Numbered from the stretch's first letter, positions 886 through 32,705 are shown. The stretch is DNA of 32,705 nucleotides from Candidatus Gastranaerophilales bacterium (GCA_947628355.1 CANQZO010000001.1:1-32705); one strand, 5' to 3'. The notes: generated by a model not told the origin, from the letters alone. Made by a program: numbers and translations.

Positions 886-1962
886 ATGTATAAAAGTTGC
901 CATTTAATACAACATGGGTTATGTTTTTTTAACGACAATCTGGCGGCGTGCTGTTTTTCGCCCGTTGACCAGATAGACGGACAGCTTCCGCCATTAATTT
1001 ACGAAAAATATTGGGGTGAAATTATACCTGTTGACGAACTTTTTAAACGTATGGATAAATATGCCGATGTGTTTAAAAACGGCGGCTGCCCGAGCGAATG
1101 CAAAAACTGTTATAAAATTGAAGAAAAAGAATGGGGTAATGAACGCTATATCGACCAAATTACAATTACTCATTTTTCTATGTGCAATGCCGATTGTATT
1201 TATTGCACAAATAACCACGAATTATGGGAAAGAACTCCAAATACTTACAGTATTGTTCCCGTTTTAAAATATTTTAAAGAGCAGGGAATTATAAAACATG
1301 GATGTGAACTGCATATCGGCGGCGGTGAGTTTACAATTTACCGTGAATGTGATGAGCTGTTAGAACTTTTTGCAATAAATAACTATGCAAGAGTTTTTGT
1401 TCCGACTAATGCCATTAAATATTCTCATAATCTTTTTAGGGCTATGGATGAAGCAACAACATACATTATTGTTTCACTTGATTGCGGAAGCAGAAAAACT
1501 TACAAAAAAATCAAACGTGTAGACGCCTTTGACCGAGTAATTGACAGCTTAAAAAAATATGCGGCAACGGAAAAATCCCGCGAAGCTATAAGGCTTAAAT
1601 ATATTATTGTTCCAACTTATAATGATAATATCCGCGAATTTAAAAAATTTCTTAAAATCGCAAAAAAACTCGGAATTAGAAATCTTATCATTGACATAGA
1701 CGCAAGATATTCGCGTATAAATAATTATAAAATTGATGATTATTTTGTTAACTTAGCAAAAAAGATGAATGATATTGCCCTTAAACAAAATTTTATAACG
1801 GAATTTTATTCGTTCTTCTTCCAAAATACCAATAATAAAGAGTTTAAAAAGGACAATTTTATAACCAGATTTATAAAATCAATAAAGTTTAAGTATTTTG
1901 ATAAAGAATTAAAAGAATTATACATTCATCACCGCTACGGCGCAAAAAGATTTAAAGATTAA
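886..1962 (+). CDS. Radical SAM enzyme, class A paralogue A1
   Basis: 358 aa. CNADCIYC (nt 1183-1206) is the CxxxCxxC cluster motif. HIGGGE is the GGE SAM-binding block. SLDCGSRKTYKKIKRVDAFD and LKYIIVPTYNDN are shared by all class A copies. N-terminal cysteines C5, C22-C23 and C72xxC75. Confidence 0.9.
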   Translation: MYKSCHLIQHGLCFFNDNLAACCFSPVDQIDGQLPPLIYEKYWGEIIPVDELFKRMDKYADVFKNGGCPSECKNCYKIEEKEWGNERYIDQITITHFSMCNADCIYCTNNHELWERTPNTYSIVPVLKYFKEQGIIKHGCELHIGGGEFTIYRECDELLELFAINNYARVFVPTNAIKYSHNLFRAMDEATTYIIVSLDCGSRKTYKKIKRVDAFDRVIDSLKKYAATEKSREAIRLKYIIVPTYNDNIREFKKFLKIAKKLGIRNLIIDIDARYSRINNYKIDDYFVNLAKKMNDIALKQNFITEFYSFFFQNTNNKEFKKDNFITRFIKSIKFKYFDKELKELYIHHRYGAKRFKD

Positions 1963-2939
1963 TTCAGATTATCATTTAGCCAATTTTTTATGTGAGAATT
2001 AATATTCCCCGAAAAATAAACATTTTTATCCTTTAAAGAGTTAAAGTATTGCAAAACGTCTTTTAAATTTTGTGATATGGGTTTATTAAAATTCTCATTC
2101 ATCCAATAAAATTCAACATTTATTTCAATGGATTTGCAGCCGATTTTAAGCGCTCTTTTTATAAATTCTTTTGCTTCTTTTATATTATCGTTTATTCCGG
2201 GGATTATGATATATTTAATCGTAACTTGAGCATTCGGGTTCTTTTTTTCCGCTTTTATATATTTTTTTAAATTATTCCAGACATTATCAAACCCTTTTAC
2301 GCGTTTAATTGTTTCGTAAGTCTTTTTATAACCCGCGTCAACACTGACTTTTAGTTTTGTTTCACCTTTTTCCAATGCTTTTGTTATTGCATCCGAATAA
2401 GTAATACCCGCAGATAAAAATTCTATTGAACCTTTTATTGAAAAAACAAAATCAATCAGCCATTGAAGTTCCTCTTTCGGATATTCGGCACATTCGCCTC
2501 CTCCGATTATAAAGTGACAGTGCGGTTTAAACATGTTTCTGTCTCTAAGTGAGCTTAAAACAGGTTTTACATCCCATACTTCGCGGGAATTTAATTCTTT
2601 TTTTATTTCACTTTTTCCGCCGCCGGAGATTATACAATATATACAATCACAGCTGCATTTTGTTCTGTTTGATACCGATACATCAATAAATCCCGCTGTT
2701 TCATCCCAATTACGTTCTTCTAATGTCGGGCAGTCTTTGCAGACTTCAGGGTAATCTCCCCTTTTACACTTTTCAATGTATTCTTCTCTGTCTTTTAAAT
2801 ATTTATCAATGTCTACAGGCTCGCCGTGGTAATTTTCCATAAAGGTCAGTTTTTTATCAAAGGACTGACAGCAATATGTTAAGTCCTCAGAATTTATTAC
2901 CAAATGATATAGCGCCCACTCGCAACATTTAAAAATCAT
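1959..2939 (-). CDS. Radical SAM enzyme, class A paralogue A2 (GGGECxEYP subclade)
   Basis: 326 aa. Motifs CSCDCIYC, IIGGGECAEYP, SVDAGYKKTYETIKRVKGFD and KYIIIPGINDN. N-terminal KCC...YCC...CKDC. AAGGA lies 7 nt before the ATG at 2939. Confidence 0.9.
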   Translation of the reverse strand: MIFKCCEWALYHLVINSEDLTYCCQSFDKKLTFMENYHGEPVDIDKYLKDREEYIEKCKRGDYPEVCKDCPTLEERNWDETAGFIDVSVSNRTKCSCDCIYCIISGGGKSEIKKELNSREVWDVKPVLSSLRDRNMFKPHCHFIIGGGECAEYPKEELQWLIDFVFSIKGSIEFLSAGITYSDAITKALEKGETKLKVSVDAGYKKTYETIKRVKGFDNVWNNLKKYIKAEKKNPNAQVTIKYIIIPGINDNIKEAKEFIKRALKIGCKSIEINVEFYWMNENFNKPISQNLKDVLQYFNSLKDKNVYFSGNINSHIKNWLNDNLN

Positions 2940-2975
2940 TGTTTATCCTTTTCAAAAAAAATTCTAACATACTAT

Positions 2976-3004
2976 TTGTAATTAATAAAGAAACATCGTA
3001 TTAT
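2976..3004 (+). promoter_or_regulatory. Candidate sigma70-type promoter of A3, positioned for a leaderless mRNA
   Basis: TTGTAA (2976-2981), exactly 17 nt, then TATTAT (2999-3004). ATG 3011 follows after 6 nt and there is no SD. Confidence 0.4.
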
Positions 3005-3010
3005 TGTTAT

Positions 3011-4027
3011 ATGAGAATATGCAATAATCTAAATACTTCAATTTGCTTTAATTACAAGGAAATAGGTATAACTTGGTGTACTTTAACCAATGCTAATAAC
3101 GGTTTAGGGTGGCCAAAAATTCCGGATGAAATCTTTGACGGTGAAAAAATTGATTGGAATAAATTTTTTGATTTTAGGGCAAAAGAAATTGAGTCGATAA
3201 AAAATTCTACTGCACGTAAGGAATGTGAAAACTGTCAGCAAATTGAAGATAAGGATTTTGTTGATGACAGAAAAATTCGTTATATTCTGCTTTCGCCTTG
3301 GCAGGTTTGTAATTCCGACTGCATATACTGTCTCGGGCATGCTCAGCCGAGAGATAAAAAATCTTCAGGCTATGATGAATTTTATAAAGAATATGTTGAA
3401 CCTTATGATATGCTTGAAATCATTAAGGATATGATTAAAAATAATGTTCTTGCTTCCGATTGCGAGATAGATTTTGCGGGCGGGGAACCGACGTTGTATC
3501 CTAAATTTGATGATATTATTAATTTTTTAGTCGATAACAATTATAAAAACATTATTATTCATACTAATAATATCCAATACTCAAAAGCAATTGAACGGGG
3601 TATTAAAGAAAATGCCATAAGTCTTATGATTTCTATAGATGCCGGTACTAAAAAATGCCATGAACAAGTCAAACGGGTTAAATCTTTTGATAAGGTTTGG
3701 CATAATTTTAAAAAATATTCAAAAGCTAAAAAGAAAGATTATTCAAAAAGGCTGTGTACAAAGTATGTAATAGTTCCTAACGTAAATGATACTAAAAAGG
3801 AACTGGAAGAATTTATTAAACAATCCCGCAAAAACGGAGCTGCTCAGGTCGCTTTAAATGTATATAACCAGCTTTTAAATGAAATGAATTACGAAGATAA
3901 TCTGCTTCGTCACCTTGTTGAATTAGCTGATTTTTGGGCTCAAAAAGCCAAAGAAAATAAACTTTCTTATATGTTTTTCCCGAATATTGAATTTGTTTAT
4001 AAAAAATTAAATTTAGATTTGCCCTAA
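3011..4027 (+). CDS. Radical SAM enzyme, class A paralogue A3
   Basis: Motifs CNSDCIYC, DFAGGEPTLYP, SIDAGTKKCHEQVKRVKSFD and KYVIVPNVNDT. I moved the start to ATG 3011 (MRICNN...). The track's TTG at 2939 adds 24 non-conserved residues and overlaps the A2 start codon. Confidence 0.85.
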   Translation: MRICNNLNTSICFNYKEIGITWCTLTNANNGLGWPKIPDEIFDGEKIDWNKFFDFRAKEIESIKNSTARKECENCQQIEDKDFVDDRKIRYILLSPWQVCNSDCIYCLGHAQPRDKKSSGYDEFYKEYVEPYDMLEIIKDMIKNNVLASDCEIDFAGGEPTLYPKFDDIINFLVDNNYKNIIIHTNNIQYSKAIERGIKENAISLMISIDAGTKKCHEQVKRVKSFDKVWHNFKKYSKAKKKDYSKRLCTKYVIVPNVNDTKKELEEFIKQSRKNGAAQVALNVYNQLLNEMNYEDNLLRHLVELADFWAQKAKENKLSYMFFPNIEFVYKKLNLDLP

Positions 4028-5016
4028 TTAATTAATTTTAAAGCATATTTATTAATTATATATTCTGTTTTATCCCATGTTAACAATTTTATTCCCTTTT
4101 CTTCACATAATTTTTTCATGTGAAGGTACAAACTGCCGTAATGAGCAGGCAATGGTGTTTCATCTAAATTTGTAAACATGACATATTTATTATCAATCAT
4201 AAATTCAATATTGCTTATTCCGATATCAGACATTAAATTTACAAATTTTGTTATTTCTTCAAGATTATCATTTATATGTTCTATAACAATATATTTAACA
4301 ATTATTCTTTTTGAAAATTTACTTTTTGCATATTTTCTTAAATTTTCAACAGAGTCTTTAAATTTATCTACTCTTTTCAGTTTGTAATAAACTTCTGGCT
4401 CGGCGCAGTCAAGTGAGGTTGTGTATGTCGTCAAGTCCTTATCCAATAGCTCTTTTACTATCGGCTGATAAATTATATTATTTGAAAGTATGTAAAATTC
4501 TTTGAGCCCGTTTTTTAAAAATTCTTTTACCATAGGCTTAAATTCTTTTAAAACGGATATATCTCCGCCCTGTATACTGACAAATAAATTATCCCTATCA
4601 AGTAAATCATGTTTATATAACTCTTTTATCAAAGGAACAATATCATAATAATCACTTTTTCTTACTTTAGTTTCTATTTTTCCTTTTGAATGAAACATTC
4701 TTGCGCAATATATACATCCGCAATTGCAGTGAGTCCAGTGGCTTATATTGATTGTTTTAAATTTTGGCAGAATAATATCCGTACTTTTGCGCTCACGCAG
4801 GAAATAACAGCTGCGGCAGGGTGATTTTTCAATATCATCTTCATTTAAAAGTTTAAAAGCATTTGTTTTTACTGCCCGAAAAGCGTCCCAATCTATTTTT
4901 TCTCCGCGGTAATTTTCATAATATATCGGACCTATCTGTCCTGTGCAGCAAGACATTATTCTGTCGTGGAAACAAGATAATACATTATTTAATTCATCAC
5001 AAAAATATTGTTTCAT
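4024..5016 (-). CDS. Radical SAM enzyme, class A paralogue A4 (QGG[DN] subclade)
   Basis: 330 aa. Motifs CNCGCIYC, SIQGGDISVLKEF (GGD instead of GGE), SLDCAEPEVYYKLKRVDKFKD and KYIVIEHINDN. N-terminal C...CC...CRSC. Confidence 0.9.
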   Translation of the reverse strand: MKQYFCDELNNVLSCFHDRIMSCCTGQIGPIYYENYRGEKIDWDAFRAVKTNAFKLLNEDDIEKSPCRSCYFLRERKSTDIILPKFKTINISHWTHCNCGCIYCARMFHSKGKIETKVRKSDYYDIVPLIKELYKHDLLDRDNLFVSIQGGDISVLKEFKPMVKEFLKNGLKEFYILSNNIIYQPIVKELLDKDLTTYTTSLDCAEPEVYYKLKRVDKFKDSVENLRKYAKSKFSKRIIVKYIVIEHINDNLEEITKFVNLMSDIGISNIEFMIDNKYVMFTNLDETPLPAHYGSLYLHMKKLCEEKGIKLLTWDKTEYIINKYALKLIN

Positions 5017-5027
5017 TAAATTCCTGC

Positions 5028-6038
5028 CTATAAATTAAGTACCAGCGCTCTGTCATAAAACTCAAACGCAATTTTTTCCTGCTCGCAGCGGTTTCTTATA
5101 TACCTTAATAAATCTTTTACATATTCCGGCACTTCGCCATTTTGACGAACAAACCATTTTTCCTCTATATCCGCTATTAAATATTTGACTCCCAATTTAT
5201 TTATACAAAGCTCAAGCCATTTATCTATTTCTTCTTTTGTATCGTTTACGTTAGGAATTATTATATATTTTACCCCTAAAGAAGTCGGATGGTATTTTGC
5301 TGCCGATTTTGCATAAGCCTTGATGTTTTTGCAGACATCATTAAACTTATCAACCTTTTTTACTTTTTTAAATACTTTCCGTGTCCCTGCGTCAAGTGAT
5401 ATAACTATATGAATATCAACATCTTTCTCCTCAAGCACTTTTGCAGACATTTTACTGTATTTTATACCGTTTGTATAAAGTGCATAGTGCTTATTTCCGT
5501 ATTTCGCAAAAAGTTTTATTATATCATCAAACTTTTTCAATATTACAGGCTCGCCCATTGCAAAGGAAATGTGAGCTCCCGGAGCCTTTTCCAGATTATA
5601 TATTTTATTATTCAGCATTTCTTTAAATAACGGGAATATATCATATGGCTTGTATGTTCTGTGCTCCAGTATCTCTTGATAAGAAAAACAATATATACAG
5701 TTGGCATTACATTCGTTGGAATGCCCAATCCATATCATATCAATGTAATTATCAAGGTCTGATAAAAATTGTTCTTCTGAATTTTCATCAAATTCCTCAA
5801 TCCAATGACAGCCTTGGCAAAATGGCGGAATTTCACCGTTTCTCATATTTTTTACTAGAGTATTTTTTATTTCAAATACTTTGTTCCAATCCGCTTTATC
5901 TTTCGGCCCGGCATATGGGATTATATAATTATTGTTTCTTTCTTTTGGTGAATGTATTGAAAGATGACAATGCCTGAAACAATCATAATGTATATACAGC
6001 CCATGGGCTAAATATCTGCACCTGTACATCTTTCCCAT
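5028..6038 (-). CDS. Radical SAM enzyme, class A paralogue A5
   Basis: Motifs CNANCIYC, FAMGEP, SLDAGTRKVFKKVKKVDKFND and KYIIIPNVNDT. The start is placed at ATG 6038 (MGKMYRCRYLAHGL) because AAGAGGA sits 5 nt upstream. The track start at 6092 adds 18 unconserved residues. Confidence 0.85.
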   Translation of the reverse strand: MGKMYRCRYLAHGLYIHYDCFRHCHLSIHSPKERNNNYIIPYAGPKDKADWNKVFEIKNTLVKNMRNGEIPPFCQGCHWIEEFDENSEEQFLSDLDNYIDMIWIGHSNECNANCIYCFSYQEILEHRTYKPYDIFPLFKEMLNNKIYNLEKAPGAHISFAMGEPVILKKFDDIIKLFAKYGNKHYALYTNGIKYSKMSAKVLEEKDVDIHIVISLDAGTRKVFKKVKKVDKFNDVCKNIKAYAKSAAKYHPTSLGVKYIIIPNVNDTKEEIDKWLELCINKLGVKYLIADIEEKWFVRQNGEVPEYVKDLLRYIRNRCEQEKIAFEFYDRALVLNL

Positions 6039-6095
6039 AATTATCCTCTTTTTTAGAATTATATCATAATTTATTTTTATGTTATATTTCATTTT

Positions 6096-7631
6096 GTGAG
6101 AAATATTTTACAAAATAGGTTATTTTTCAATTTTGTAAATATTGTTATATTATTGGCAATATTTGTTTTTCTTCTGACCAAATTAAAATATTCCGTTATT
6201 ATTAATGACGATATGATGGATATTATATCCCGAACATTTTTGTTTTCGCATGGTCGCTTTATATCTGAATTATTCGGCATTTTATTAATTAAATTAATTC
6301 CCGATATTCTTGGTATAAATTATCAGGATTTTGCAATTGTTCAAGGTATATTAAAATCTGCAGTTTTTTGCGGTTTGATTTATGTCATTTCCATCGCGCC
6401 TTTTAGATTTAGACAAAAAAATATCAGTATTTGTTGTTATTCTGTTTTGTCCTTTTTTACAATTTTTTCTTCATTGATACAAATGGATTTTGTATGGTGT
6501 TTTGATACTTATCAGTTTTTTTCCGGTTATGTGGGATATTTATTTGTATATATTATTTTTTGGTATAAAATTGCGGATAATTATTTAAAGAATAAATCAC
6601 TTTCAAAAAAAGATTTAATTGTAATCTGCCTGCTTGCTTTTATTACGGCTCAAATTAATGAACTGTTAAGTATTAGTTGTACGCTTTTATTAATCCTTTT
6701 GTTATTTGATTCGTATATATCAAAAATAAAAGATAAAAAATATATAATTTATCCGTTAGTCGTCATTTTATTAACTGATATATTTGTTTATTTTTGTCAA
6801 GGCTCAAAAGAATTATGGGAATCTTATCAACTTTCAAATTATAATTTAATCTCATATTCGGAAATAATAAATTTTATTATTTTATTTTTTAAAAAAATAA
6901 TATTATATAATGCTTTTTTAATTGTTCCGATTTTTTGTTTCTTAGTATTCTTATATAAGATAAAAGAAATTAAAATAATTAGATATTTTATATATTCCAA
7001 TACAGGTTTTTTATTCTTCATACTTGGAACATATTTCCTTCCAAAAACATGTATTTATACTCAGCTTTCGGATAAATGGTGGTTTTTACATCCCGGAATA
7101 ATGATCGGTTATAATATATTTCTGCTTGTGTCGGCTTTATTTTTATTGGGAGTTATAAATGCAAAAACAACAAATGTTATGACAAAAAATTTATTTACTA
7201 TTGCATTGTTTTTATGTTGTTTAATTCATTGTTTTATTAATTTTAATATTGACAGAATAATGTGCCTTCATACATATATGCATACAAAAAGAATGATGTA
7301 TATAAATGATAAACTTTCATTGTTTTATTTAAAAAGAGGAGAAACAATAATATTACCTGCAGGACAACCATTTTATATACTTCCCGATGTCAATCCTTAT
7401 GATTTAGCCATATCAAGAAAATTTCATTCCCAAACTTTTGATAAAAATCGTGCAAGATATTTGATTTATCTGGAAAAAAATTACAATGTTAATGTTGACA
7501 GCGGAGTGACGTTTAAAGATAATAAAACAGCGATGAAAGAATATCTGGGTAAGGGCGGCACTTTTACGAGAGATGAACTTAAAAAATTAAAATTTTCTAA
7601 TATTAAAATGTCCGAGAAAATTTCGCAATAA
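6096..7631 (+). CDS. Polytopic membrane protein P1 (GT-C-like candidate; paralogue of P2 and P3)
   Basis: 511 aa with about a dozen hydrophobic spans by eye. KYSVIINDDMMD (DD at nt 6207-6212) directly follows TM1, then HGRFISE. There is a conserved NE block mid-protein and a conserved roughly 100 aa hydrophilic C-terminus (GG.FT..EL..L.FSNI). GTG start without a clear SD, so the start is uncertain. Confidence 0.75.
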   Translation: MRNILQNRLFFNFVNIVILLAIFVFLLTKLKYSVIINDDMMDIISRTFLFSHGRFISELFGILLIKLIPDILGINYQDFAIVQGILKSAVFCGLIYVISIAPFRFRQKNISICCYSVLSFFTIFSSLIQMDFVWCFDTYQFFSGYVGYLFVYIIFWYKIADNYLKNKSLSKKDLIVICLLAFITAQINELLSISCTLLLILLLFDSYISKIKDKKYIIYPLVVILLTDIFVYFCQGSKELWESYQLSNYNLISYSEIINFIILFFKKIILYNAFLIVPIFCFLVFLYKIKEIKIIRYFIYSNTGFLFFILGTYFLPKTCIYTQLSDKWWFLHPGIMIGYNIFLLVSALFLLGVINAKTTNVMTKNLFTIALFLCCLIHCFINFNIDRIMCLHTYMHTKRMMYINDKLSLFYLKRGETIILPAGQPFYILPDVNPYDLAISRKFHSQTFDKNRARYLIYLEKNYNVNVDSGVTFKDNKTAMKEYLGKGGTFTRDELKKLKFSNIKMSEKISQ

Positions 7632-7649
7632 AAATATAATGGAAGTAAT

Positions 7650-9194: not shown

Positions 9195-9214
9195 ATAAAT
9201 GCTAATATTTGTTT

Positions 9215-10600: not shown

Positions 10601-10653
10601 AAAAAATTTAGTAAATAAAATAAATCCTAATTTTATTGTGATAAAATTTGTAT

Positions 10654-12225: not shown

Positions 12226-12232
12226 AATGCAA

Positions 12233-16292: not shown

Positions 16293-16293
16293 T

Positions 16294-18308: not shown

Positions 18309-18338
18309 ATCGGCACATTTCTAATGTGCCGATTTTTT
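18309..18338 (+). terminator. Rho-independent terminator closing the + operon (B1-S1, A8, B2, S2)
   Basis: A perfect 11-bp stem, ATCGGCACATT (18309-18319) with AATGTGCCGAT (18323-18333), has a 3-nt loop and is followed by TTTTT. It starts 15 nt after the S2 stop. The hairpin also lies just 3' of the convergent S3 gene, but a minus-strand transcript would have no U-tract. Confidence 0.75.
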
Positions 18339-19260: not shown

Positions 19261-19261
19261 T

Positions 19262-20257: not shown

Positions 20258-20283
20258 TGTTTTTTCTCCGTATTTACAATATA

Positions 20284-21255: not shown

Positions 21256-21272
21256 TAATTATTCTCTTTACT

Positions 21273-21301: not shown

Positions 21302-21307
21302 TAGTAT

Positions 21308-23305: not shown

Positions 23306-23311
23306 AACTTC

Positions 23312-23321
23312 ATTATATAAT
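23312..23321. promoter_or_regulatory. Palindromic ATTATATAAT giving overlapping divergent -10 hexamers for A10 and A11
   Basis: TATAAT on the + strand (23316-23321) lies 6 nt before ATG 23328. TATAAT on the - strand (23312-23317) lies 6 nt before ATG 23305. The whole spacer is only 22 bp and has no SD on either side. Confidence 0.45.
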
Positions 23322-23327
23322 ACTTTT

Positions 23328-25421: not shown

Positions 25422-25450
25422 AATTTTATGATAGCACAATTTTTAAATAA

Positions 25451-26446
25451 TTAATTTAGAAATTCTTTTAAACTGTTATATTCGCTATATTTCTCGGCAA
25501 TCATAAAATAAACGGGAAGATTTACGTTATATTCTTTTGCAAGCTCAATTACTATGAAAAACAAGAAGTCTATTTCTGATTTTTGACCTATTTTCATATC
25601 ATTTAAAATGGAAGAATAAACATTTGCATCATCACGTTCTTTATATTTTTCAAAATTAGAATAATATTCTTCAAGAAACCCATCTCTTACGTTAATATTT
25701 ATAGCTTTAGCAAGTATTAAAAGTTCACTGCAGAGTTTTTTAAATGTTTCTTCTTTTTCTCCGGTTATTTGATGGGCATTTATATCATAATAAATACAGC
25801 ATGCTTCAAAAGGCGAGCGCGTAATGAGGCGTTCAAACGCAAGCTCTAAAAATTGCTTTTCGGTAATTAAATGAGTATCCATGCCTGTTTGAGTAAAGTC
25901 TTCTTTTATTTGATTAAGAATTTTATTATCAATGTTATTGTGCGGTGCAAATTGAAACTCAACATATTCGCGCTGCTGGAGGTATTCGGCATCATTTCTG
26001 TTATACCAGCGGCATTTGCCTACAAATACGGAATTAAGAACATTAATATTTTTTAATTTTCTGCTTAAAGCATAACCCATACCAAATCCGTTTGCTATAG
26101 AGGTTACAATTGTTTTTTTATGCGAAATACGCTCAATAAACGGCACGGCAGATAAAATATCCGGTGTCCTGATACATAATATTATTACATCAGCTTTGCC
26201 CTTAAACTGTTCTTGAGTTTGTATTTTTACTTTATATCTTTTATCACCTTTTACATTTGAAATTAGTCTAATTCCGCCTTTTTCTTTTGCATTTTTTATA
26301 ACTGACTCATACTTTGAAATTAATGTAACATTTTTTCCCGCTGAATGCAGGAAGCAGGCAAAAGTTGCTCCTGTTGAGCCTGCGCCTATAACTACGTATT
26401 TTAATTTCTTATTAAAAAAATTTATTATACTCATTTTTTTAATCAT
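25451..26446 (-). CDS. ApbA/PanE-family (ketopantoate reductase-like) NAD(P)-dependent oxidoreductase
   Basis: 331 aa. N-terminal Rossmann motif KYVVIGAGSTGATFACFLHSAGKNVTLI, then ADVIILCIRTPD and SIANGFG, as in 2-dehydropantoate 2-reductase family proteins. ATG 26446 overlaps the S5 stop (ATGATTAA); ATG 26434 is an alternative start. Confidence 0.6.
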   Translation of the reverse strand: MIKKMSIINFFNKKLKYVVIGAGSTGATFACFLHSAGKNVTLISKYESVIKNAKEKGGIRLISNVKGDKRYKVKIQTQEQFKGKADVIILCIRTPDILSAVPFIERISHKKTIVTSIANGFGMGYALSRKLKNINVLNSVFVGKCRWYNRNDAEYLQQREYVEFQFAPHNNIDNKILNQIKEDFTQTGMDTHLITEKQFLELAFERLITRSPFEACCIYYDINAHQITGEKEETFKKLCSELLILAKAININVRDGFLEEYYSNFEKYKERDDANVYSSILNDMKIGQKSEIDFLFFIVIELAKEYNVNLPVYFMIAEKYSEYNSLKEFLN

Positions 26447-27350
26447 CTAAATGTTTTATAATATAGGGCAACATTTTATCCCAATAAAGCTCACCGGGAT
26501 GACATTCGTCTTTTGCCAGATATTCTTTTTCAACATCAGGTCTGGCAAATATAAAACCTGATTCTTTTTCCAGATTTATTATTTTGTATTTTGATAAAAA
26601 ATAATTTTGCGGAAAATCTTCAAGCTGAATAATTATAAATTTTGAGTCCGGATATAGTTCTTTTAAACCTTTAGATATGGAGTCTAAATATAAAATTGCG
26701 AAATTGTTGATACGAGTATTTATGAAATTAACAATTTTAAAATGCCCGTATAAATAATTATTTAGGAAATACAGGTTTTTGATATAATCTACAAAATACA
26801 TATATTCAAATATTGAGAATTTTCTTAATTTTAATTTCCCGTGATCATTTTTATAATAAATTTGAAAATGATCATGATTTTGCCAAGATGCATCTTGGTA
26901 CATTCTTCTTTTATGATCATCCATCCAAAAATATAAAATATATTTTGGCGGTATTTTGACATTTTCTTTTATATAACCTGTTTCTAAAATATTATATGTG
27001 TTTGCAAGACCGCCTCCCGGAACTCCAAAGTTATACACAGGCATATTCAGTGCTTTATTTAATTTAGCTGAAATCGTTTGATCATCGTCTAAAGCATAAC
27101 CGTATGCTATAGAACATCCTAAAACAAGAATGGAGTTTTTTTTGTTTTTTGCATCATAAAATTTTGCATTATACATTTTCCAATTATTGTGCGGATAGAA
27201 ATTAAGAAAAGCAAATTTTATATTATTCCCGCTTTTAGTATTAGATTTGACTTTTGTATAAAATGTAACAGTTTCAATAATAAAAATAGCAAAAACAAAT
27301 ATTATAAAATTAACTAGTATAATTAATGAAATCTTTTTTAATTTATTCAT
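26439..27350 (-). CDS. Membrane-anchored SGNH/GDSL-like protein S5
   Basis: 303 aa with an N-terminal anchor (ISLIILVNFIIFVFAIFIIETVTFY). Motifs LVLGCSIAYGYA, VPGGGL and KDECHPGELYW. Confidence 0.65.
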   Translation of the reverse strand: MNKLKKISLIILVNFIIFVFAIFIIETVTFYTKVKSNTKSGNNIKFAFLNFYPHNNWKMYNAKFYDAKNKKNSILVLGCSIAYGYALDDDQTISAKLNKALNMPVYNFGVPGGGLANTYNILETGYIKENVKIPPKYILYFWMDDHKRRMYQDASWQNHDHFQIYYKNDHGKLKLRKFSIFEYMYFVDYIKNLYFLNNYLYGHFKIVNFINTRINNFAILYLDSISKGLKELYPDSKFIIIQLEDFPQNYFLSKYKIINLEKESGFIFARPDVEKEYLAKDECHPGELYWDKMLPYIIKHLDD

Positions 27351-27403
27351 TTTGTCCCCTTTTCATAATTAGTTTATAATATTAAATTTCTTTTTACAAT
27401 AAT

Positions 27404-28483
27404 TTATCCGTTCTCATTTGAGGAAATTTTGTCTTCATATATACCTAAAATGTTTGAATATAATTCAGAGTTTATTCCCTTTTCCTTTGTTTTATTAATG
27501 AAAAACTCTGTCAGATTTTTAATTTTTAATATTAAATCTTGCGAGATTATATTATTTTCAAATACCCTGTTATCCAAATTTAAAATTAATTTATTTATAT
27601 CTATTTGTTTTGATTTTTCAATCCAAAGAGATATTTCTTCAACAGTATCATTAACATTGGGGACTATAACATATTTAGAAATAATTTGTTCCGGAAATTT
27701 TTGAACTTGCATATATTTGATTAAATTTTTCCAAACAAGGTCATAACTTTCAACCCCTTTTACTTTTTTATGAATTTCTTTAGATCCCGCATCTATAGAA
27801 ACTGTTAATGTTACAACACCCTTCTTTATGCCTTCTTCTATTATATTTGAATAATTTATTATATTTGAAAATACATAAACCTTTTTTATTCCGAAATTAA
27901 GGAAAAAGGATAAAGCATCTTCAAATTCTTTGTGCAGTGTTGGCTCTCCTCCGGCAAAATCTATTATTGTTTCCTTTGTTATAATGTTATTTTTTATAAG
28001 TTGTTTTATTATCGGCACAAAGGGATATGTATCACGCCCCTGTGATTTGGTTGTATATTCTCCTGTGGACAGTCGCATGGTATTTTTCCATGAGTCGCAA
28101 TATATACATCTTGAGTTGCAAATTCCGCCTTCCGAAAATTGAACGTATTCCATAAAGTTTTTTAATTTGGTTATATCACTCCTGTAATATTTTTTATCAA
28201 GATTATTACAGCCCTCGCAATTTTTAGGGATTATGCCTTTTGCCAGATTTTTTCTGTTTATTTGTATATGTTTTATTAACTCTTTTACATTAAATTTATT
28301 TTCAAAGTCTGTTAAATCTATATTGTCGTATATACAAGGGAAGACTCTATTTTGAGCAGGGTTGCCCATTGAACAAAAAGCAACTTTTCTTCCGAAAAAT
28401 GTAATATGGGAATTTAGAGCTTCACAAGAAACAAAATTTTCATTATTAATTTTTTGTTTTCTCCAAAACTTTATGTTTAACAT
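27404..28483 (-). CDS. Radical SAM enzyme, class A paralogue A12
   Basis: 359 aa. Motifs CNSRCIYC, DFAGGEPTLHKEF, SIDAGSKEIHKKVKGVESYD and KYVIVPNVNDT (sister of A3). AGGGAG SD 6 nt before the ATG. Confidence 0.9.
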   Translation of the reverse strand: MLNIKFWRKQKINNENFVSCEALNSHITFFGRKVAFCSMGNPAQNRVFPCIYDNIDLTDFENKFNVKELIKHIQINRKNLAKGIIPKNCEGCNNLDKKYYRSDITKLKNFMEYVQFSEGGICNSRCIYCDSWKNTMRLSTGEYTTKSQGRDTYPFVPIIKQLIKNNIITKETIIDFAGGEPTLHKEFEDALSFFLNFGIKKVYVFSNIINYSNIIEEGIKKGVVTLTVSIDAGSKEIHKKVKGVESYDLVWKNLIKYMQVQKFPEQIISKYVIVPNVNDTVEEISLWIEKSKQIDINKLILNLDNRVFENNIISQDLILKIKNLTEFFINKTKEKGINSELYSNILGIYEDKISSNENG

Positions 28484-28500
28484 TTCTTCTCCCTTATATT

Positions 28501-29487
28501 TTAATATGTTCCTTGCTCCATTAAAGCTACGGAAGTTAAATTTTTTCTTAATAATAGTCCCAGCTCTTTTGTTCGCTTTTCTGCATAATCAAAAATTGTA
28601 TAATTGTAATCTTCAACTTTTTGACCTTGTTTAGTATGTATTCCCCAACAGTATTCCATACTTATTTCTACACAGGTTAATCCGTATTTTTTACTTTCCA
28701 AAAGCCATTTTTCAACTTCTTCAATATTATCATTAAACCCTTTTAATATTATGTATTTAGATACAACATTATCAGTGTTATGCGGATTTTCTTTATATTT
28801 TTTAGCGGCCGAAACATATCTTTTTAAATTTTTCATGACCTGAAGATATTTATCTCTTTGTTTGATTTTTTTATATATATTACGGCTTCCGCAGCATACA
28901 GCAACTGTTATTGAACCCTTCCCCTTTTTAAGTAATTTTTCTACTGATTTTAAATATCTTATGCCCGAGCTTTCGCAGGTAGAAAAATTTAAATTGTGTT
29001 TTAAAAATAAATCAACCAGTTTTGGAAATTCTTTAAGAACGCCTATTTCTCCGCCGCCTACATTTACATACAGATAATTTAAGTCTATCTCGTTTAATTT
29101 GTACAGTTCTTTTATGGTTTGATAAATTTTGGGATTTCCGTATTTTATCTTATCACTGAACTCGCCTTTAGTTTCATCTCTATAGGAACAGTAAAAACAA
29201 CCGCAATTGCAGTGATACCAATAGTAAAGGTCTATTCTTTGTATTTTTTCGTTTAATACATTTTCCGTGTTTCTATAAATACAATCTTTACAACCTTCCG
29301 GAATAATATTATTATTTAAGGCATTTTTTATGCGGTTTCTTTGTTCTTTTATTTTATATGCAAGTTCTTTTGGCTTTTCTTCATAGGTTGATATTATTTC
29401 ACCTAATTGTAATGTTGTACAATATCTTACATTTTTTTGATGAAAACTTAATCCGTTAGTTAATAATTTACAATAGTTCTTCTGCAT
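28501..29487 (-). CDS. Radical SAM enzyme, class A paralogue A13
   Basis: 328 aa. Motifs CNCGCFYC, NVGGGEIGVLKEF, AVCCGSRNIYKKIKQRDKY and KYIILKGFNDN. Confidence 0.9.
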   Translation of the reverse strand: MQKNYCKLLTNGLSFHQKNVRYCTTLQLGEIISTYEEKPKELAYKIKEQRNRIKNALNNNIIPEGCKDCIYRNTENVLNEKIQRIDLYYWYHCNCGCFYCSYRDETKGEFSDKIKYGNPKIYQTIKELYKLNEIDLNYLYVNVGGGEIGVLKEFPKLVDLFLKHNLNFSTCESSGIRYLKSVEKLLKKGKGSITVAVCCGSRNIYKKIKQRDKYLQVMKNLKRYVSAAKKYKENPHNTDNVVSKYIILKGFNDNIEEVEKWLLESKKYGLTCVEISMEYCWGIHTKQGQKVEDYNYTIFDYAEKRTKELGLLLRKNLTSVALMEQGTY

Positions 29488-29571
29488 AATAATATCTTTT
29501 AGGATAACATATTGAATGGTAATATTCTACTTTTTATTGTAATATATAAATGTAGAAATTTGGAAGTTAAA

Positions 29572-30633
29572 ATGTCAATTATATGTAAATATTTAGCAGA
29601 AGAAATTCATTTTGCACCGACGAGAATTGTTCCATGCGGTGCTAATGTTTGGGATAGAGTCAGAGATGATATCGATACTTATTTTTTAAAACCTGATATT
29701 GACCAAAAAGGTATTGATTTTGATTTATACTTTAATAAACGAAAAGAATATATTGAACAGTTTAAAAATGGTAAAACACCTGAATTTTGTGTAAATTGTG
29801 AAAAATATACACCTGTTAATTATAATGATGACGAATGTAATGAATTAAAAATAAAAAAGATTAATATATATAACAGAACTATTTGCAGCTGCCGTTGTGT
29901 ATACTGCTGTTTAGCTGCATTTGGGAAAATGGATGCATTTAAGAAAATGAATTCGGATAAAAATTATGATATAAATCCGATTTTAAAGCAAATTGATGAT
30001 TTGCATTTAATAGAAGAAGGTTCTGAAATTGCTATTTTGGGCGGTGAATGCAGTGAATATCCCGATGAGCTTGAAAATGTCGTTAATTGGGGTAAAAAAT
30101 ATAATCCTAAATTTATTATTTTATCTAACGGAATAATTTATAATGATACAATAGCAAGTCTTTTATCTTCGGGGAATATTGAACTTAAAATTTCTTTAGA
30201 TTGCGGTTCTAAAGCGAAACATGAGCAAATTAAAAGAGTTAAAGCATTTGACAGAGTCATTCAAAATTTAGAAAATTACAGTAAAAAAGCCGAAAATAAT
30301 CCGAATGCCCAAATTCAATTAAGATATTTAATACTGCCAAAAATAAATGATAATATACAAGATGTGAAAAATTTTTTAAATATTGCAAGAAAATATAAAA
30401 TAAATACGGTAGTATTAAGCATTGAAAGAGAATGGATGCAGGATAACAACCAAAAGAGAGTTCCTTCTCATCTTAGAAAATTTATAAAATTTTGTGCGTT
30501 TAATAAAGAATATAAAGATATACATATCGGCTTTGATAAAAGTCATATATGGGATTGGTGGCTTGAAAAAGTATTAAACGAAAAAACAATTTTTGATAAA
30601 TTAAAAATGTTTTGGAACAAGAATAATTTTTAG
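29572..30633 (+). CDS. Radical SAM enzyme, class A paralogue A14 (GGGECxEYP subclade)
   Basis: Starts at ATG 29572 (MSIICKYLAEE...) with GGAAG upstream; the track's TTG at 29512 adds 20 unconserved residues. Motifs CSCRCVYC, AILGGECSEYP, SLDCGSKAKHEQIKRVKAFD and RYLILPKINDN. Confidence 0.85.
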   Translation: MSIICKYLAEEIHFAPTRIVPCGANVWDRVRDDIDTYFLKPDIDQKGIDFDLYFNKRKEYIEQFKNGKTPEFCVNCEKYTPVNYNDDECNELKIKKINIYNRTICSCRCVYCCLAAFGKMDAFKKMNSDKNYDINPILKQIDDLHLIEEGSEIAILGGECSEYPDELENVVNWGKKYNPKFIILSNGIIYNDTIASLLSSGNIELKISLDCGSKAKHEQIKRVKAFDRVIQNLENYSKKAENNPNAQIQLRYLILPKINDNIQDVKNFLNIARKYKINTVVLSIEREWMQDNNQKRVPSHLRKFIKFCAFNKEYKDIHIGFDKSHIWDWWLEKVLNEKTIFDKLKMFWNKNNF

Positions 30634-31673
30634 TGGATATTAAAATATCTGTTTACAACGCGAATTTCATCATATTTATATTTATCCCAAACAGGGTCTT
30701 TATATTTTGAAACATTTGATGTGAGCATAATTGAAGCCATATTCCCGACATAAAAATTACAATGCATTACATTAACAACTTTATCTTTTGTTTTGTAAAA
30801 TAAATCAATGATATGAGGGCTGATATTATCTCGGTTCGGCCTGAAATAATGAGCATTGATATCCAGAACTATGTTTTTAACATTTACCTGTCTGCATTTT
30901 TCAAGCCATTTATTTATCTCGTCCTCATTATCGTTATATCCCGGAACTACAATATACTTTACACTTACTAAATCATCATATAAAGCATTTTTATTATATT
31001 TATTAATGTTTCTCCATACTTTATCAAAAGTTTTTACTCTCTTTATCTTCATGTGTACTTCTTTAGAACCTGCATCTACCGAAATGACAATACTGCTTTT
31101 TCCCTGTTTTAATTTTTTTCCTATGGTAGATGAATAATCAACTCCCGAACTGTTCATAACATAAAAATAATTATATTTATCAAGTAATTTAACTATTTTA
31201 TTAAATTCTTTCAAACAGGTAAACTCGCCTCCTGCAAAATTTGCCAGTCCGTTTTTGTCTATAATATCTCTTTCCGCCATTTTCTTTAATATCGGATATA
31301 CACTATACGTTTTTAAAGAATTAAAATATTTTTTATCTTGACCTGTATAACAATAGATACAATTTGAATTACATTTTGTCCAATGCTGTATCATTAAATT
31401 TTTAATTTTTGGTTGATTAATGGGTAAATTATCTTCCTCTTTTAAATCTATACACCCCTCACAATTTTCTGTTTCTTCCCCTTTTAAACATTTTTCATAA
31501 ATTTTATATCTGTTTTCTATTAGTTTATCAATGTCAAAAGTTTTATCCGTTATATTATCAAGTATACAAATTTCCCCACCCCCTTTATGTCCGAGCTGTG
31601 AACACAAATTAATTTTATTTTCATAGAAAAATTGAATACCGTGTTTAATAAATCCGCAACATTTATATTTCAT
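30630..31673 (-). CDS. Radical SAM enzyme, class A paralogue A15
   Basis: 347 aa. Motifs CNSNCIYC, NFAGGEFTCLKEF, SVDAGSKEVHMKIKRVKTFD and KYIVVPGYNDN. GGAG SD 8 nt before the ATG. Confidence 0.9.
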   Translation of the reverse strand: MKYKCCGFIKHGIQFFYENKINLCSQLGHKGGGEICILDNITDKTFDIDKLIENRYKIYEKCLKGEETENCEGCIDLKEEDNLPINQPKIKNLMIQHWTKCNSNCIYCYTGQDKKYFNSLKTYSVYPILKKMAERDIIDKNGLANFAGGEFTCLKEFNKIVKLLDKYNYFYVMNSSGVDYSSTIGKKLKQGKSSIVISVDAGSKEVHMKIKRVKTFDKVWRNINKYNKNALYDDLVSVKYIVVPGYNDNEDEINKWLEKCRQVNVKNIVLDINAHYFRPNRDNISPHIIDLFYKTKDKVVNVMHCNFYVGNMASIMLTSNVSKYKDPVWDKYKYDEIRVVNRYFNIH

Positions 31674-31746
31674 TTATTTGCTCCGTTATAATTTTAATAT
31701 TTACTTGTAACTTTAATATTTTACTATGGTTTTATATGTTTTTAAA

Positions 31747-32705
31747 TCAGTTTTGTTTTGTTAAATATTCTTTTATTTCTTCAGATTCAAATGAAATATT
31801 TAATGGAGTTTTTTTAAAATATTCATATATGCTTTTAATATTTTTTTCTGTAGGTTTATTTTTATTCTTTTCAAACCATAAATATTCTATTGCTATTTCA
31901 ATATTTTTGCAGTTGATTTTTTCTGTATTCTTTAAAAAATTTTCGGCTTCTTTTAAATTATCATTATAAGTTGGTAAAATAATATATTTTACCACTACGG
32001 ATGAATTATTATTTATAATTTTTATATATTCCTCTATATTTTTCCATACCAAATTATATGCCTTTACTCTTTTTATTTTTTCAAAAGTTTCTTTTGTTCC
32101 CGCATCAACAGAAATTTTTAATCGGCATTTTCCCGCCTGCAATACTTTTGCTATGGCGTCAGAGTATATTATTCCGTTAGAAAGTATTTCAAGCCGGCAA
32201 TTTAAAATTAACGCCATATATAAGATAAATTCCAATTCTCCTTTCGGATATTCGCTGCATTCTCCGCCTGCTACGGTAATAACACAGTTATTGTCTATTA
32301 AATTATTATTATACATATCCTTTAAAACCGGAATAATGTCATAAGTATCGCGCGTATTTAGTTCTTCTTTTGTTTGATTGCTTGTTGTAATCAATGAGCA
32401 GTATATGCAGTTGCAGGAACATTTTGTTCTGTTAGTTATTATAATTCTGTTAATTTTATTGCCCTCATCCCATTCCTTTTTTATAAGACGGCTGCAGCCT
32501 TTACAGCTTGCAGGGATATCCCCAGCTTTTAACATGGTTATATATTCATTTCTTTTGTTTAAATATTCATTTATATTAAATTTTTGACCGCTAAAGTTAT
32601 TGATAAACGTACTTTCGTAGTTATTTGTAGGACTGCAGCAGCAGGGAATTACAGAATTCTGTGCAAAAACTATTTCATGCAGTAAATATTCACAACAAGT
32701 AAATT
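31747..32705 (-). CDS. Radical SAM enzyme, class A paralogue A16 (GGGECxEYP subclade), 5'-truncated by the window edge
   Basis: The track starts it at Met 32535. The same frame stays open to nt 32705 and encodes ...FTCCEYLLHEIVFAQNSVIPCCCSPTNNYESTF...NEYITMLKAGDIPASCKGC, which is the class A N-terminal Cys domain (compare MIFKCCEWALYHLVI...YCC of A2). Motifs CSCNCIYC, TVAGGECSEYP and SVDAGTKETFEKIKRVKAYN. Only about 2-3 codons appear to be missing. Confidence 0.85.
   Translation of the reverse strand, partial: FTCCEYLLHEIVFAQNSVIPCCCSPTNNYESTFINNFSGQKFNINEYLNKRNEYITMLKAGDIPASCKGCSRLIKKEWDEGNKINRIIITNRTKCSCNCIYCSLITTSNQTKEELNTRDTYDIIPVLKDMYNNNLIDNNCVITVAGGECSEYPKGELEFILYMALILNCRLEILSNGIIYSDAIAKVLQAGKCRLKISVDAGTKETFEKIKRVKAYNLVWKNIEEYIKIINNNSSVVVKYIILPTYNDNLKEAENFLKNTEKINCKNIEIAIEYLWFEKNKNKPTEKNIKSIYEYFKKTPLNISFESEEIKEYLTKQN

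Follow-up and report, generated by a model that had tools for sequence, protein, structure and literature searches.

The contig CANQZO010000001.1 (GCA_947628355.1) of Candidatus Gastranaerophilales bacterium, whose complete 32,705 bases (G+C 24-33%) form the window analyzed here, carries a dense array of radical S-adenosylmethionine (rSAM) enzyme genes that are interleaved with genes for membrane proteins and a single reductase. Behind an LplA-like lipoate ligase gene (138-806), 28 genes occupy positions 886-32705, and the gene coordinates leave spacings of at most about 80 bp between them. All-against-all BLAST clustering yields 20 rSAM genes, 16 of class A and four of class B, which is the split given in an earlier reading made from the DNA alone (the sequence-only reading). 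Its other counts also hold: three polytopic membrane paralogs, five anchored SGNH-like domains (four in free proteins, the fifth fused to a class B rSAM), and one reductase of the PanE/ApbA family. Gastranaerophilales is an order within Candidatus Melainabacteria, which do not photosynthesize and form the sister group of Cyanobacteria. Proteins from the left third of the window are 92-98% identical to those on a contig of a Candidatus Gastranaerophilales metagenome-assembled genome (MAG) from rabbit gut, apart from a membrane protein, at 73%, and the class A copy with an extension (9209-10600), at 87%. Three more homologs of the membrane proteins come from Gastranaerophilales MAGs, and one class A homolog carries Gastranaerophilales in its NCBI name.

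The CxxxCxxC motif is present in 20 of the 20 rSAM open reading frames (ORFs), and all of them pass the gathering score of the Pfam radical SAM model PF04055 (29.9-68.5 bits versus 29.5). The sequence-only reading, which had proposed such profile searches, was thus correct about this motif; the GGE block that it also ascribed to every copy is degenerate in several (GGD, GGN, MGE, or GE). It had further described all 20 genes as full-length and free of frameshifts, which applies to 19 of them. The frame of the 20th gene (31747-32705) stays open to the final base, so the gene is cut by the contig end and the cluster goes on past the window; a truncation or frameshift of this gene, which had been listed as 31747-32535 with 262 amino acids (aa), is thereby ruled out.

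The rSAM paralogs share 27-46% identity. Most pairs fall between 27 and 35%, and the sister pairs between 36 and 46% (45.6% for the best class A pair, 43.5% for the best class B pair), so that the earlier estimate of about one-half identity for sister pairs was too high. Homology among the paralogs is reflected by BLAST E-values of 1e-35 to 1e-96. Orthologs from different genomes are 58-98% identical, in contrast to the at most 46% between paralogs, from which it follows that the duplications are old and that each copy has been retained. The ratio of nonsynonymous to synonymous substitution rates (dN/dS) against orthologs is 0.03-0.10 for 15 rSAM genes and the PanE gene. Judged by these ratios, each rSAM paralog tested is under strong purifying selection and non-redundant. 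Since the paralogs are real homologs and each tested copy is constrained against its ortholog, the array is not a product of chance.

The two classes differ in how readily their N-terminal domains are recognized. Class B proteins start with a SPASM domain (PF13186, 41-57 bits), behind which lies the rSAM core. Two of them were compared with the model NF033640 (N_Twi_rSAM) and reach 48-53 bits versus a cut-off of 170. Class A proteins match neither PF13186 nor NF033640. In an alignment of 37 class A sequences, C23, C70, C73, and the C98xxxC102xxC105 motif are invariant, and C6 is nearly so. The AlphaFold2 (AF2) model of 15309-16292, which has a predicted local distance difference test (pLDDT) score of 93.5, arranges the N-terminal cysteines as C6, β-hairpin, C23, helix, and C70xxC73 and contains a partial β/α barrel core. 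This layout matches the twitch domain of BtrN, whose fully ligated [4Fe-4S] cluster is held by one cysteine before the hairpin, one after it, and two after helix α2 (PMC6231123). In an hhalign comparison, the profiles of class A and class B align in both the core and the N-terminal domain (probability 99.1%, E 8e-19), and both classes can therefore be assigned to the N-terminal-twitch (N-twitch) rSAM enzymes. By these profile comparisons, class A is a divergent N-twitch branch that no curated model covers. The twitch or SPASM domain is N-terminal in all 20 proteins instead of taking its usual position C-terminal to the core, a permuted order that is named by NF033640.

Foldseek searches with the class A model return generic rSAM cores only, with BlsE on top and SuiB, SkfB, the pyruvate formate-lyase activating enzyme (PFL-AE), the anaerobic sulfatase-maturating enzyme (anSME), as well as DesII among them, at TM-scores of approximately 0.4-0.5; the best target-normalized TM-score is that of PFL-AE (0.62). 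The named NCBIfam rSAM families (MoaA, PFL-AE, viperin, Tes, HpnH, LipS2, anSME, BlsE, DesII, and others) score 15-77 bits versus cut-offs of 130-850. Sequence searches of the PDB yielded no usable match for either class, and a tblastn search of class A against plasmids gave no match. Against 1.84 billion cluster representatives, the class A profile finds at least 1,564 matches at E ≤ 1e-30, and at least about 140 near-full-length representatives lie below 1e-67. The ten clusters inspected bear no informative names, and by these counts the class A family is large yet unannotated. An identity as LipS2 or lipoyl synthase, prompted by the neighboring LplA gene, was rejected for the two class A paralogs that match (27-31 bits versus a cut-off of 270).

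Weak matches to the pVip models (28-51 bits) and to the viperin model NF038283 (33-39 bits) raise the idea of an anti-phage defense system in which viperin-like rSAMs would make chain-terminating nucleotide analogs. The pVip matches mostly cover the generic core, that is the first ~110-160 of 257-262 positions, with one paralog reaching position 226, and the NF038283 cut-off of 180 bits is far above the scores obtained. As the family thresholds are not reached, an identity with pVip or viperin is rejected. No other PADLOC component is matched, no mobile-element signatures were seen, and synteny is conserved within the lineage, all of which makes a role in defense highly improbable.

The three polytopic membrane paralogs (511-525 aa, 10-12 transmembrane (TM) segments, 27-35% mutual identity) have no match in Pfam or NCBIfam even at E = 10, no match in PDB sequence searches, and no match to the curated families of the glycosyltransferase C (GT-C) fold (PMT_2, ArnT, STT3, EpsG, and others). 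In a Foldseek comparison of the AF2 model of 7650-9194 (pLDDT 79.8, predicted TM-score 0.83) with the PDB, the ten best matches are all GT-C enzymes: STT3 (OST-A and OST-B), DPY19, AftA, ArnT, ALG3, AglB, and Pmt1. Their probabilities are 0.82-1.0 and their TM-scores reach 0.46 (ArnT); PglB follows at rank 12, and all later matches are noise. GT-C enzymes carry a catalytic acidic motif directly after TM1, in the first outer loop. Here, an N-D-D motif stands after TM1, with D34 and D35 invariant and N33 near-invariant among 11 homologs. Relatives of 667-764 aa in the related loci L001, L097, and L099 carry C-terminal tetratricopeptide repeats (TPRs), and these fused homologs have HD or DHD at the N-D-D position. 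The protein encoded by 10648-12225 is 26% identical over 527 aa to the 764-aa TPR-fused homolog of L001.

By the predicted structure, the membrane proteins are GT-C-like and candidate glycosyltransferases. The sequence-only reading had listed GT-A and GT-B glycosyltransferases as well as Wzx and Wzy as missing, and indeed none of them is matched by Pfam in the window; with a predicted GT-C fold in three membrane proteins, however, the view that no glycosyltransferase is present needs revision. A homolog search with the membrane-protein profile finds only nine close relatives. The first paralog (6096-7631) shares 73-75% aa identity with its L005 ortholog at a dN/dS of 0.24, whereas the rSAM genes of 886-6092 show 92-98% and 0.03-0.07, which suggests faster evolution or recombinational replacement of a surface-exposed component.

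The four free SGNH-like proteins (about 303-325 aa) consist of one N-terminal TM helix and an SGNH-like domain. The fifth copy is located at the C terminus of the class B gene 13332-15263, behind a TM helix, and aligns with the free proteins. The copies have in common the motifs F-G-C-S-x-x-x-G, Y-N-x-x-x-x-G-G, and D-x-H-P-x-E, which correspond to blocks I, II, and V. The block I serine and the block V D-x-H-P are present in four of the five copies; in 17359-18294, glycine replaces the block I serine and asparagine the block V aspartate. This copy is probably catalytically dead and may act in binding or as a scaffold. No match was found in Pfam (E = 10) or by PDB sequence search, and the model NF047474 (LA_2486 SGNH/GDSL) is matched by two copies over blocks I-II only (E 3.5e-5 and 1.2e-4, 21-23 bits versus a cut-off of 300). 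L006 retains the rSAM-TM-SGNH fusion (647 aa); in L001 and L002 its parts are unfused. As it joins a cytoplasmic radical enzyme to an extracytoplasmic SGNH-like domain, the fusion ties both to one process.

The sister contig L097, whose proteins are 88-99% identical over the genes common with the window, extends the locus past base 32705. It holds the complete last rSAM gene, two class A genes, a 97-aa TPR protein, and a 670-aa GT-C-TPR protein, followed by a class B gene, a class A gene, a 248-aa TPR protein, another class B gene, a 143-aa protein, and a DegT/DnrJ/EryC1 aminotransferase. The full array probably spans about 42 kb and comprises about 25 rSAM genes; by annotation of this contig its edge abuts a typical nucleotide-sugar aminotransferase (DegT). 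By eye, the 143-aa protein beside DegT looked cupin- or FdtA-like; Pfam and PDB lend this no support, and no claim is made.

Comparison across related genomes, as had been proposed in the sequence-only reading, reveals presence/absence and gene-content variation among the relatives of the array. Syntenic with the window, L001 is devoid of SGNH genes and carries three additions, a B12-rSAM, a small rSAM with a TM anchor, and a GT-C-TPR gene; L005 has one membrane protein in place of the window's three. L099 combines nine class A, three class B, and two GT-C-TPR genes with housekeeping genes at the end. In L002, nine rSAM genes are flanked by FHIPEP, CheW, MCP, and CheA. L015 contains one gene of each class together with a small rSAM and a PanE-class A fusion, and L100 has a single class A gene. 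Near the arrays of L002 (2813-3211) and L015 (7246-7650), which otherwise differ in context, lies a gene for a small CxxCxxCC protein (PF03692).

L101 (6615-10957) and L102 (6620-11978), from other Gastranaerophilales-like genomes, share a compact conserved module that follows a ribosomal protein operon and consists of a Lys-rich, tail-anchored ~440-aa protein with no Pfam match and three class A genes. The expanded array may descend from this module as its ancestral core; alternatively, a candidate substrate may be seen in the ~440-aa protein.

The PanE/ApbA-family protein (25451-26446) matches both Pfam domains of its family at 68 and 54 bits versus cut-offs of about 22, and its gene context argues for a keto substrate other than 2-dehydropantoate. 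In another lineage, a PanE-class A rSAM fusion (P0145) has 14 members on many contigs. A fusion of class A to MatE (MOP superfamily) also exists, and in L102 a D-2-hydroxyacid dehydrogenase adjoins the three-rSAM module. An NAD(P)H-dependent 2-oxo(acid) reductase (PanE, the PanE-class A fusion, or the 2-hydroxyacid dehydrogenase) is thus the steadiest non-rSAM partner of class A. This partnership would also suit a small-molecule, lipid, or cofactor pathway, in which the rSAM array and the reductase would make a metabolite, either soluble or a lipid (an unusual lipid tail, for example, or a product derived from a hydroxy acid), with the membrane proteins only loosely associated. The rSAM-only arrays in housekeeping contexts would fit such a pathway, the MatE fusion could mean small-molecule export, and there are sub-threshold matches to Tes, HpnH, and LipS2, although these scores are far below the cut-offs. 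Other pathway enzymes (ligases, synthases, thiolases, and methyltransferases) are absent from the window, the strain-level presence and absence of single paralogs is ill-suited to a linear pathway, and the rSAM-TM-SGNH fusion and the GT-C paralogs lie inside all large arrays except one. A pathway of this kind is hence considered fairly improbable.

A link to sugars emerges from the class B relatives. Marine and other metagenomes commonly contain full-length relatives of 23-31% identity, and the contexts described here, from unrelated loci, are those of relatives whose neighbors could be annotated. In L044, the neighbors are a nucleotidyltransferase/cupin protein, an NAD epimerase/dehydratase, a TylF O-methyltransferase, and a UDP-Glc/GDP-Man dehydrogenase; in L022, DegT, a sugar N-formyltransferase, and two GT2 glycosyltransferases; and in L047, GT2 and TylF. 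L067 adds GT4, a B12-rSAM, an rSAM-SPASM protein, GT2, and a PMT_2 GT-C enzyme, and L081 a methyltransferase, an rSAM-SPASM protein, GT2, an rSAM, and a B12-rSAM. On a Paracoccus plasmid (L016), the relative occurs with GT25, another glycosyltransferase, and a nucleotide-sugar dehydrogenase. The low-GC marine contigs L044, L045, and L046 hold class B-like N-twitch rSAMs, often paired, inside sugar-modification operons, which in L044 lie directly downstream of the genes for thymidylate synthase and dihydrofolate reductase. For class A, the links to sugars are indirect and consist of co-location with class B, the PanE and MatE fusions, and the DegT neighbor.

The same enzyme family can also be read as a set of protein or peptide maturases. 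The rSAMs would then modify one or more proteins encoded elsewhere, for example by cross-linking, epimerization, or Ser/Cys oxidation; TPR proteins would serve as adaptors for the substrates, and GT-C-TPR proteins would O-glycosylate proteins. SPASM and twitch rSAMs are mostly peptide or protein modifiers (PMC6231123), and the structural neighbors of class A include SuiB, SkfB, CteB-type enzymes, anSME, and PFL-AE, the last with the best target-normalized score. The extended cluster encodes several small and large TPR proteins, the conserved tail-anchored ~440-aa protein lies directly upstream of three-rSAM modules, and genes of flagellar export and chemotaxis border the L002 array. On the other hand, the ~440-aa protein has no homolog in the window, the distant class B relatives are found in sugar loci and not in loci for peptides that are synthesized ribosomally and modified post-translationally (RiPPs), and the PanE fusion is hard to reconcile with peptide chemistry. 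The sequence-only reading had noted that no precursor-sized ORF fits into the short gaps and that a peptidase, an ABC exporter, a RiPP recognition element (RRE), and a B12-binding domain are missing. The gaps of at most about 80 bp leave no room for such an ORF, and none of the four functions is matched by Pfam among the window proteins, nor are the RRE, peptidase, and exporter matched by NCBIfam. Nothing comparable to a cognate precursor peptide was seen outside the window either, in the related loci L001, L002, L097, and L099. Without a precursor, an RRE, a leader peptidase, or an exporter in the window, the locus does not look like a RiPP cluster, as had been stated, and maturation of proteins encoded elsewhere is regarded as unlikely.

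The array does resemble RiPP clusters (sactipeptides, streptide, pyrroloquinoline quinone, mycofactocin) in that rSAMs with auxiliary-cluster domains occur in both and that SuiB and SkfB are structural neighbors. It differs from them in the missing precursor, RRE, peptidase, and exporter, in the N-terminal position of the twitch domain, and in its neighbors (GT-C, SGNH, PanE, and DegT).

The locus is best described, with a likelihood put slightly short of an even chance, as a variable glycoconjugate-tailoring island around an expanded N-twitch rSAM family of gut Gastranaerophilales. This description draws on the domain architectures, the predicted GT-C fold, the fusions, the gene contexts, the selection on single copies, and the variation between strains; a sugar as the substrate, the type of chemistry, and the donor and acceptor would follow from them with the same tentative, not quite even, likelihood. 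AprD4/AprD3 consists of an rSAM enzyme paired with an NAD(P)H reductase, which the pairing with PanE recalls. Together with this pair, the DprE1/DprE2 pair and the GT-C enzymes serve as precedents for glycan tailoring, next to the gene contexts and the roles of the twitch cluster in BtrN and anSME (PMC6231123).

In the proposed mechanism, each rSAM paralog would abstract a hydrogen atom in the cytoplasm from a specific position of an activated sugar that is linked to a nucleotide or to polyprenyl phosphate. The auxiliary cluster in the twitch-like domain, fully ligated by cysteines, would accept the second electron, as has been proposed for BtrN and anSME (PMC6231123), which would lead to keto, dehydrated, or epimerized intermediates. 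Subsequently, the keto intermediates would be re-reduced by the PanE-like NAD(P)H reductase, with net epimerization or deoxygenation as the outcome, and the system would act as an anaerobic functional analog of the DprE1/DprE2 pair or of AprD4/AprD3. The GT-C-fold proteins, some of them TPR-fused, would take the tailored sugars off a lipid carrier and attach them to an acceptor outside the cytoplasm (such as lipopolysaccharide, another glycan, or a protein), and the membrane-anchored SGNH-like domains would add or remove O-acyl groups outside the membrane. The product would vary through gene gain and loss between strains and possibly through slipped-strand switching at poly-G tracts. In the sequence-only reading, too, radical chemistry in the cytoplasm was coupled to transferases or esterases outside it, for the tailoring of an envelope glycan or lipid. 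The glycan part of this proposal is strengthened by the GT-C fold, the class B sugar loci, the DegT edge, and the rSAM-TM-SGNH fusion; the lipid part has gained no specific support.

Several observations weigh against glycan tailoring. Arrays of the same rSAM family occur with no GT-C, SGNH, or PanE gene within 10 kb in L002 (nine rSAMs) and in L101 and L102 (three rSAMs), and the L015 array has neither a GT-C nor an SGNH gene, though it includes the PanE-class A fusion. Conversely, the GT-C-like family is found alone, with no rSAMs, in the housekeeping contexts of L007 and L008. The Foldseek E-values behind the GT-C assignment are weak (7.6e-3 at best, up to 0.3), and no Pfam GT-C or SGNH model matches. 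By Pfam, the window contains no nucleotide-sugar synthase, priming phosphoglycosyltransferase, polyprenyl-phosphate GT2, flippase, or polymerase. To our knowledge, 25 rSAMs are far more than the number in any known glycan pathway. A sugar context is found for distant class B relatives only and for no class A protein; among the Foldseek neighbors of class A, the sugar enzymes BlsE and DesII stand beside peptide maturases and PFL-AE, all at TM-scores of ~0.45-0.5. SPASM and twitch rSAMs modify predominantly peptides or proteins (PMC6231123). The poly-G tracts described below occur in relatives that were assembled at about 4x coverage and not in the window, so that homopolymer errors are possible.

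The tailoring island has partial counterparts among known systems. Class B proteins share with NF033640 the order of an N-terminal SPASM/twitch domain and a core (profile positions 4-315 of 398). Their 48-53 bits versus a cut-off of 170 place them outside this family, which class A does not match at all and which is itself uncharacterized. Like BtrN, the class A proteins combine an rSAM core with one auxiliary cluster in a four-Cys twitch (Cys, hairpin, Cys, helix, CxxC), and among the sugar-acting rSAMs, BlsE is their top Foldseek match, with DesII also listed. In contrast to these enzymes, the twitch domain is N-terminal and not C-terminal; the TM-scores are only 0.45-0.5, a family match at the sequence level is lacking, and 20-25 paralogs stand in place of one enzyme.

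The membrane proteins resemble GT-C enzymes (ArnT, AftA/Emb, PglB/STT3, PMT, DPY19) in having ~12 TM segments, an acidic motif within the first outer loop, and a small outer domain at the C terminus, and the TPR-fused versions resemble TMTC/PMT-type enzymes. A comparable logic, redox tailoring of a sugar followed by GT-C transfer, would link the array to mycobacterial arabinan synthesis (DprE1/DprE2 and Aft/Emb). Unlike in GT-C systems, there is no Pfam GT-C match, the Foldseek E-values are weak, and the window encodes no polyprenyl-phosphate sugar synthase. The phase-variable flagellin-glycosylation, capsule, and lipooligosaccharide loci of Campylobacter jejuni likewise combine many paralogs, strain variation, and coding poly-G tracts in an AT-rich genome, and one related array lies beside flagellar and chemotaxis genes. 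The paralogs here are rSAMs and not Maf proteins or glycosyltransferases, and the tracts that might allow phase variation are found in two relatives only, not in this window. Every part belongs to a known superfamily, and none reaches a curated family threshold except for the PF04055, PF13186, and PanE-type Pfam domains; by these searches, the assembly has no described counterpart. A literature search on rSAMs of Gastranaerophilales or Melainabacteria, the N-terminal twitch, flagellin glycosylation, and O-antigen with SPASM found no description of such a system.

The sequence-only reading had proposed that the paralog array would provide combinatorial or switchable diversity. Differing gene content among relatives and poly-G/C tracts in two of them are consistent with this idea; the window itself has no such tract and no G/C run longer than 6. 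In L097 (14654-14663), a 10-base G/C tract covers the Gly-Gly-Gly of SGNH block II, and the ortholog of 26439-27350 is split and out of frame there; G9 in place of G10 would restore the frame. A second 10-base tract, in L009 (8406-8415), is in frame and encodes the GGGE SAM-binding motif of the 28501-29487 ortholog. The chance expectation of such tracts is about 0.002 in the 247 kb examined, and they are possibly the signature of slipped-strand contingency genes, although a homopolymer error is possible because of the low coverage. Switching by invertible DNA was rejected for the window: its long direct and inverted repeats are only 60-79% identical, reflecting paralogous coding conservation, and no recombinase is present.

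In its most far-reaching form, which is rather doubtful, the proposal describes a radical glycan-editing system in which more than 25 N-twitch rSAMs would perform O2-independent C-H functionalization of lipid- or nucleotide-linked sugars and, with a new GT-C family and SGNH-type O-acyl enzymes, would generate a combinatorial surface chemistry, switchable through gain and loss of paralogs and poly-G slippage. The reactions would include oxidation, epimerization, and deoxygenation and possibly C-C chemistry. With such a system, envelope diversity would arise by a new enzymatic route, and the enzymes would amount to a large store of new radical carbohydrate chemistry.

Irrespective of its function, the array would be the densest reported one of distinct, individually constrained rSAMs, with 20 of them in the 32 kb seen here and no fewer than 25 in ~42 kb on the sister contig. 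Its host belongs to a small-genome, uncultured gut lineage that is sister to Cyanobacteria, and the three main families (N-twitch class A/B rSAMs, the GT-C-fold family, and the SGNH-like family) have no curated model. If glycans are tailored as proposed, strict anaerobes would diversify their surface sugars by radical chemistry instead of the NAD- or flavin-dependent toolbox, dozens of new carbohydrate-active radical enzymes would be at hand, and host- or phage-facing surface variation in Melainabacteria would be explained. If not, a precursor-less protein modification or a many-step radical small-molecule pathway would be equally new. The PanE-rSAM and rSAM-TM-SGNH fusions offer concrete biochemical starting points.

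The individual genes are listed in Table 1. Several of the long rSAM N termini are probably start-codon artifacts, as shorter products are called on the sister contig.

Table 1. Genes at positions 886-32705 of the window, with family assignments and comparisons to orthologs
Feature	Coordinates	Strand	Length and remarks
Class A rSAM, N-terminal Cys4 twitch-like domain and core	886..1962	+	358 aa; PF04055 58 bits; Cys pattern C5..C22/23..C72xxC..C100xxxCxxC; L005 ortholog 97.8% identical; dN/dS 0.025
Class A rSAM	1959..2939	-	326 aa; PF04055 33 bits; dN/dS 0.051; nearest paralog 31747-32705 (45.6% identity)
Class A rSAM	2939..4027	+	362 aa as listed; PF04055 59 bits; real start probably the ATG at about 3011 (24-aa overhang before 'MRIC' in the paralog alignment)
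Class A rSAM	4024..5016	-	330 aa; PF04055 48 bits; dN/dS 0.071
Class A rSAM	5028..6092	-	354 aa; PF04055 57 bits; Fer4_12 weak; dN/dS 0.026
Predicted GT-C-fold polytopic membrane protein, paralog 1	6096..7631	+	511 aa; 10-12 TM; no Pfam match; fold assigned via the model of paralog 7650-9194
Predicted GT-C-fold polytopic membrane protein, paralog 2	7650..9194	+	514 aa; AF2 model and Foldseek
Class A rSAM with C-terminal extension	9209..10600	+	463 aa; PF04055 49 bits
Predicted GT-C-fold polytopic membrane protein, paralog 3	10648..12225	+	525 aa; 28-32% identity to the other two
Class A rSAM	12233..13261	-	342 aa; PF04055 64 bits; dN/dS 0.051
Class B rSAM-TM-SGNH-like fusion	13332..15263	+	643 aa; PF13186 aa 8-69, PF04055 aa 100-232, TM aa 334-352
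Class A rSAM (copy modeled)	15309..16292	+	327 aa; PF04055 66 bits; AF2 pLDDT 93.5
Class B rSAM	16276..17319	+	347 aa; PF13186 aa 14-78 and PF04055; NF033640 (N_Twi_rSAM) 48 bits over profile positions 4-315, cut-off 170
Membrane-anchored SGNH-like protein	17359..18294	+	311 aa; TM 5-23
Membrane-anchored SGNH-like protein	18337..19260	-	307 aa; TM; FGCS..YG and D.HPNE motifs; NF047474 E 1.2e-4, sub-threshold
Class A rSAM	19262..20257	-	331 aa; PF04055 48 bits; dN/dS 0.053
Membrane-anchored SGNH-like protein	20284..21255	-	323 aa
Class B rSAM	21308..22327	+	339 aa; PF13186 aa 5-66 and PF04055; dN/dS 0.067
Class A rSAM	22313..23386	-	357 aa as listed, probably 330 aa from an internal ATG (aa 28), L097 ortholog called as 330 aa; PF04055 47 bits
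Class A rSAM	23328..24323	+	331 aa; PF04055 35 bits; dN/dS 0.050
Class B rSAM	24324..25439	-	371 aa; PF13186 aa 13-79; PF04055 borderline (29.9 versus cut-off 29.5 bits); dN/dS 0.059
PanE/ApbA-family NAD(P)H 2-oxo reductase	25451..26446	-	331 aa; PF02558 68 bits, PF08546 54 bits
Membrane-anchored SGNH-like protein	26439..27350	-	303 aa; NF047474 E 3.5e-5
Class A rSAM	27404..28483	-	359 aa; PF04055 52 bits; dN/dS 0.099
Class A rSAM	28501..29487	-	328 aa; PF04055 41 bits
Class A rSAM	29512..30633	+	373 aa as listed, ortholog 353 aa; PF04055 49 bits
Class A rSAM	30630..31673	-	347 aa; PF04055 68.5 bits; ortholog P0228 98.6% identical; dN/dS 0.066
Class A rSAM, 5' end past the contig end	31747..32705	-	frame open to base 32705, first Cys motifs encoded; full-length L097 ortholog 320 aa

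Some features of single genes stand apart from the questions above. The C-terminal extension of 9209-10600 (10200-10600) comprises ~130 aa with no family match and is present in the L001 and L005 orthologs (453-461 aa). The ortholog of 24324-25439 in L009 is broken into two ORFs. L009 (contig CAZNEN010000004.1) and P0008, near-identical to the sequences described here, are deposited as 'uncultured Muribaculaceae' and 'Bacilli bacterium', respectively, labels that probably stem from faulty binning or taxonomy of public MAGs. The lipoate ligase gene (138-806, minus strand), which encodes a catalytic domain of the LplA/LipB type, adjoins the array in L005 as well and is probably a mere neighbor.

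Neighboring genes on opposite strands overlap or abut at 1959-1962, 2939, 4024-4027, 22313-22327, and 23328-23386, and head-to-head pairs have almost no spacer. Part of this overlap is due to over-long ORF calls. The corrected divergent starts of 22313-23386 and 23328-24323 are only ~22 bp apart, so that their promoters must lie within coding sequence. A consensus promoter scan of the AT-rich window was uninformative (150 sites versus 130 expected), and Rfam and tRNA scans of the window gave no match. Between the convergent genes 17359-18294 and 18337-19260, a hairpin with an 11-bp stem and T and A runs on either side (18309-18333) is likely a bidirectional terminator, the sole convincing one within the first 20 kb scanned.

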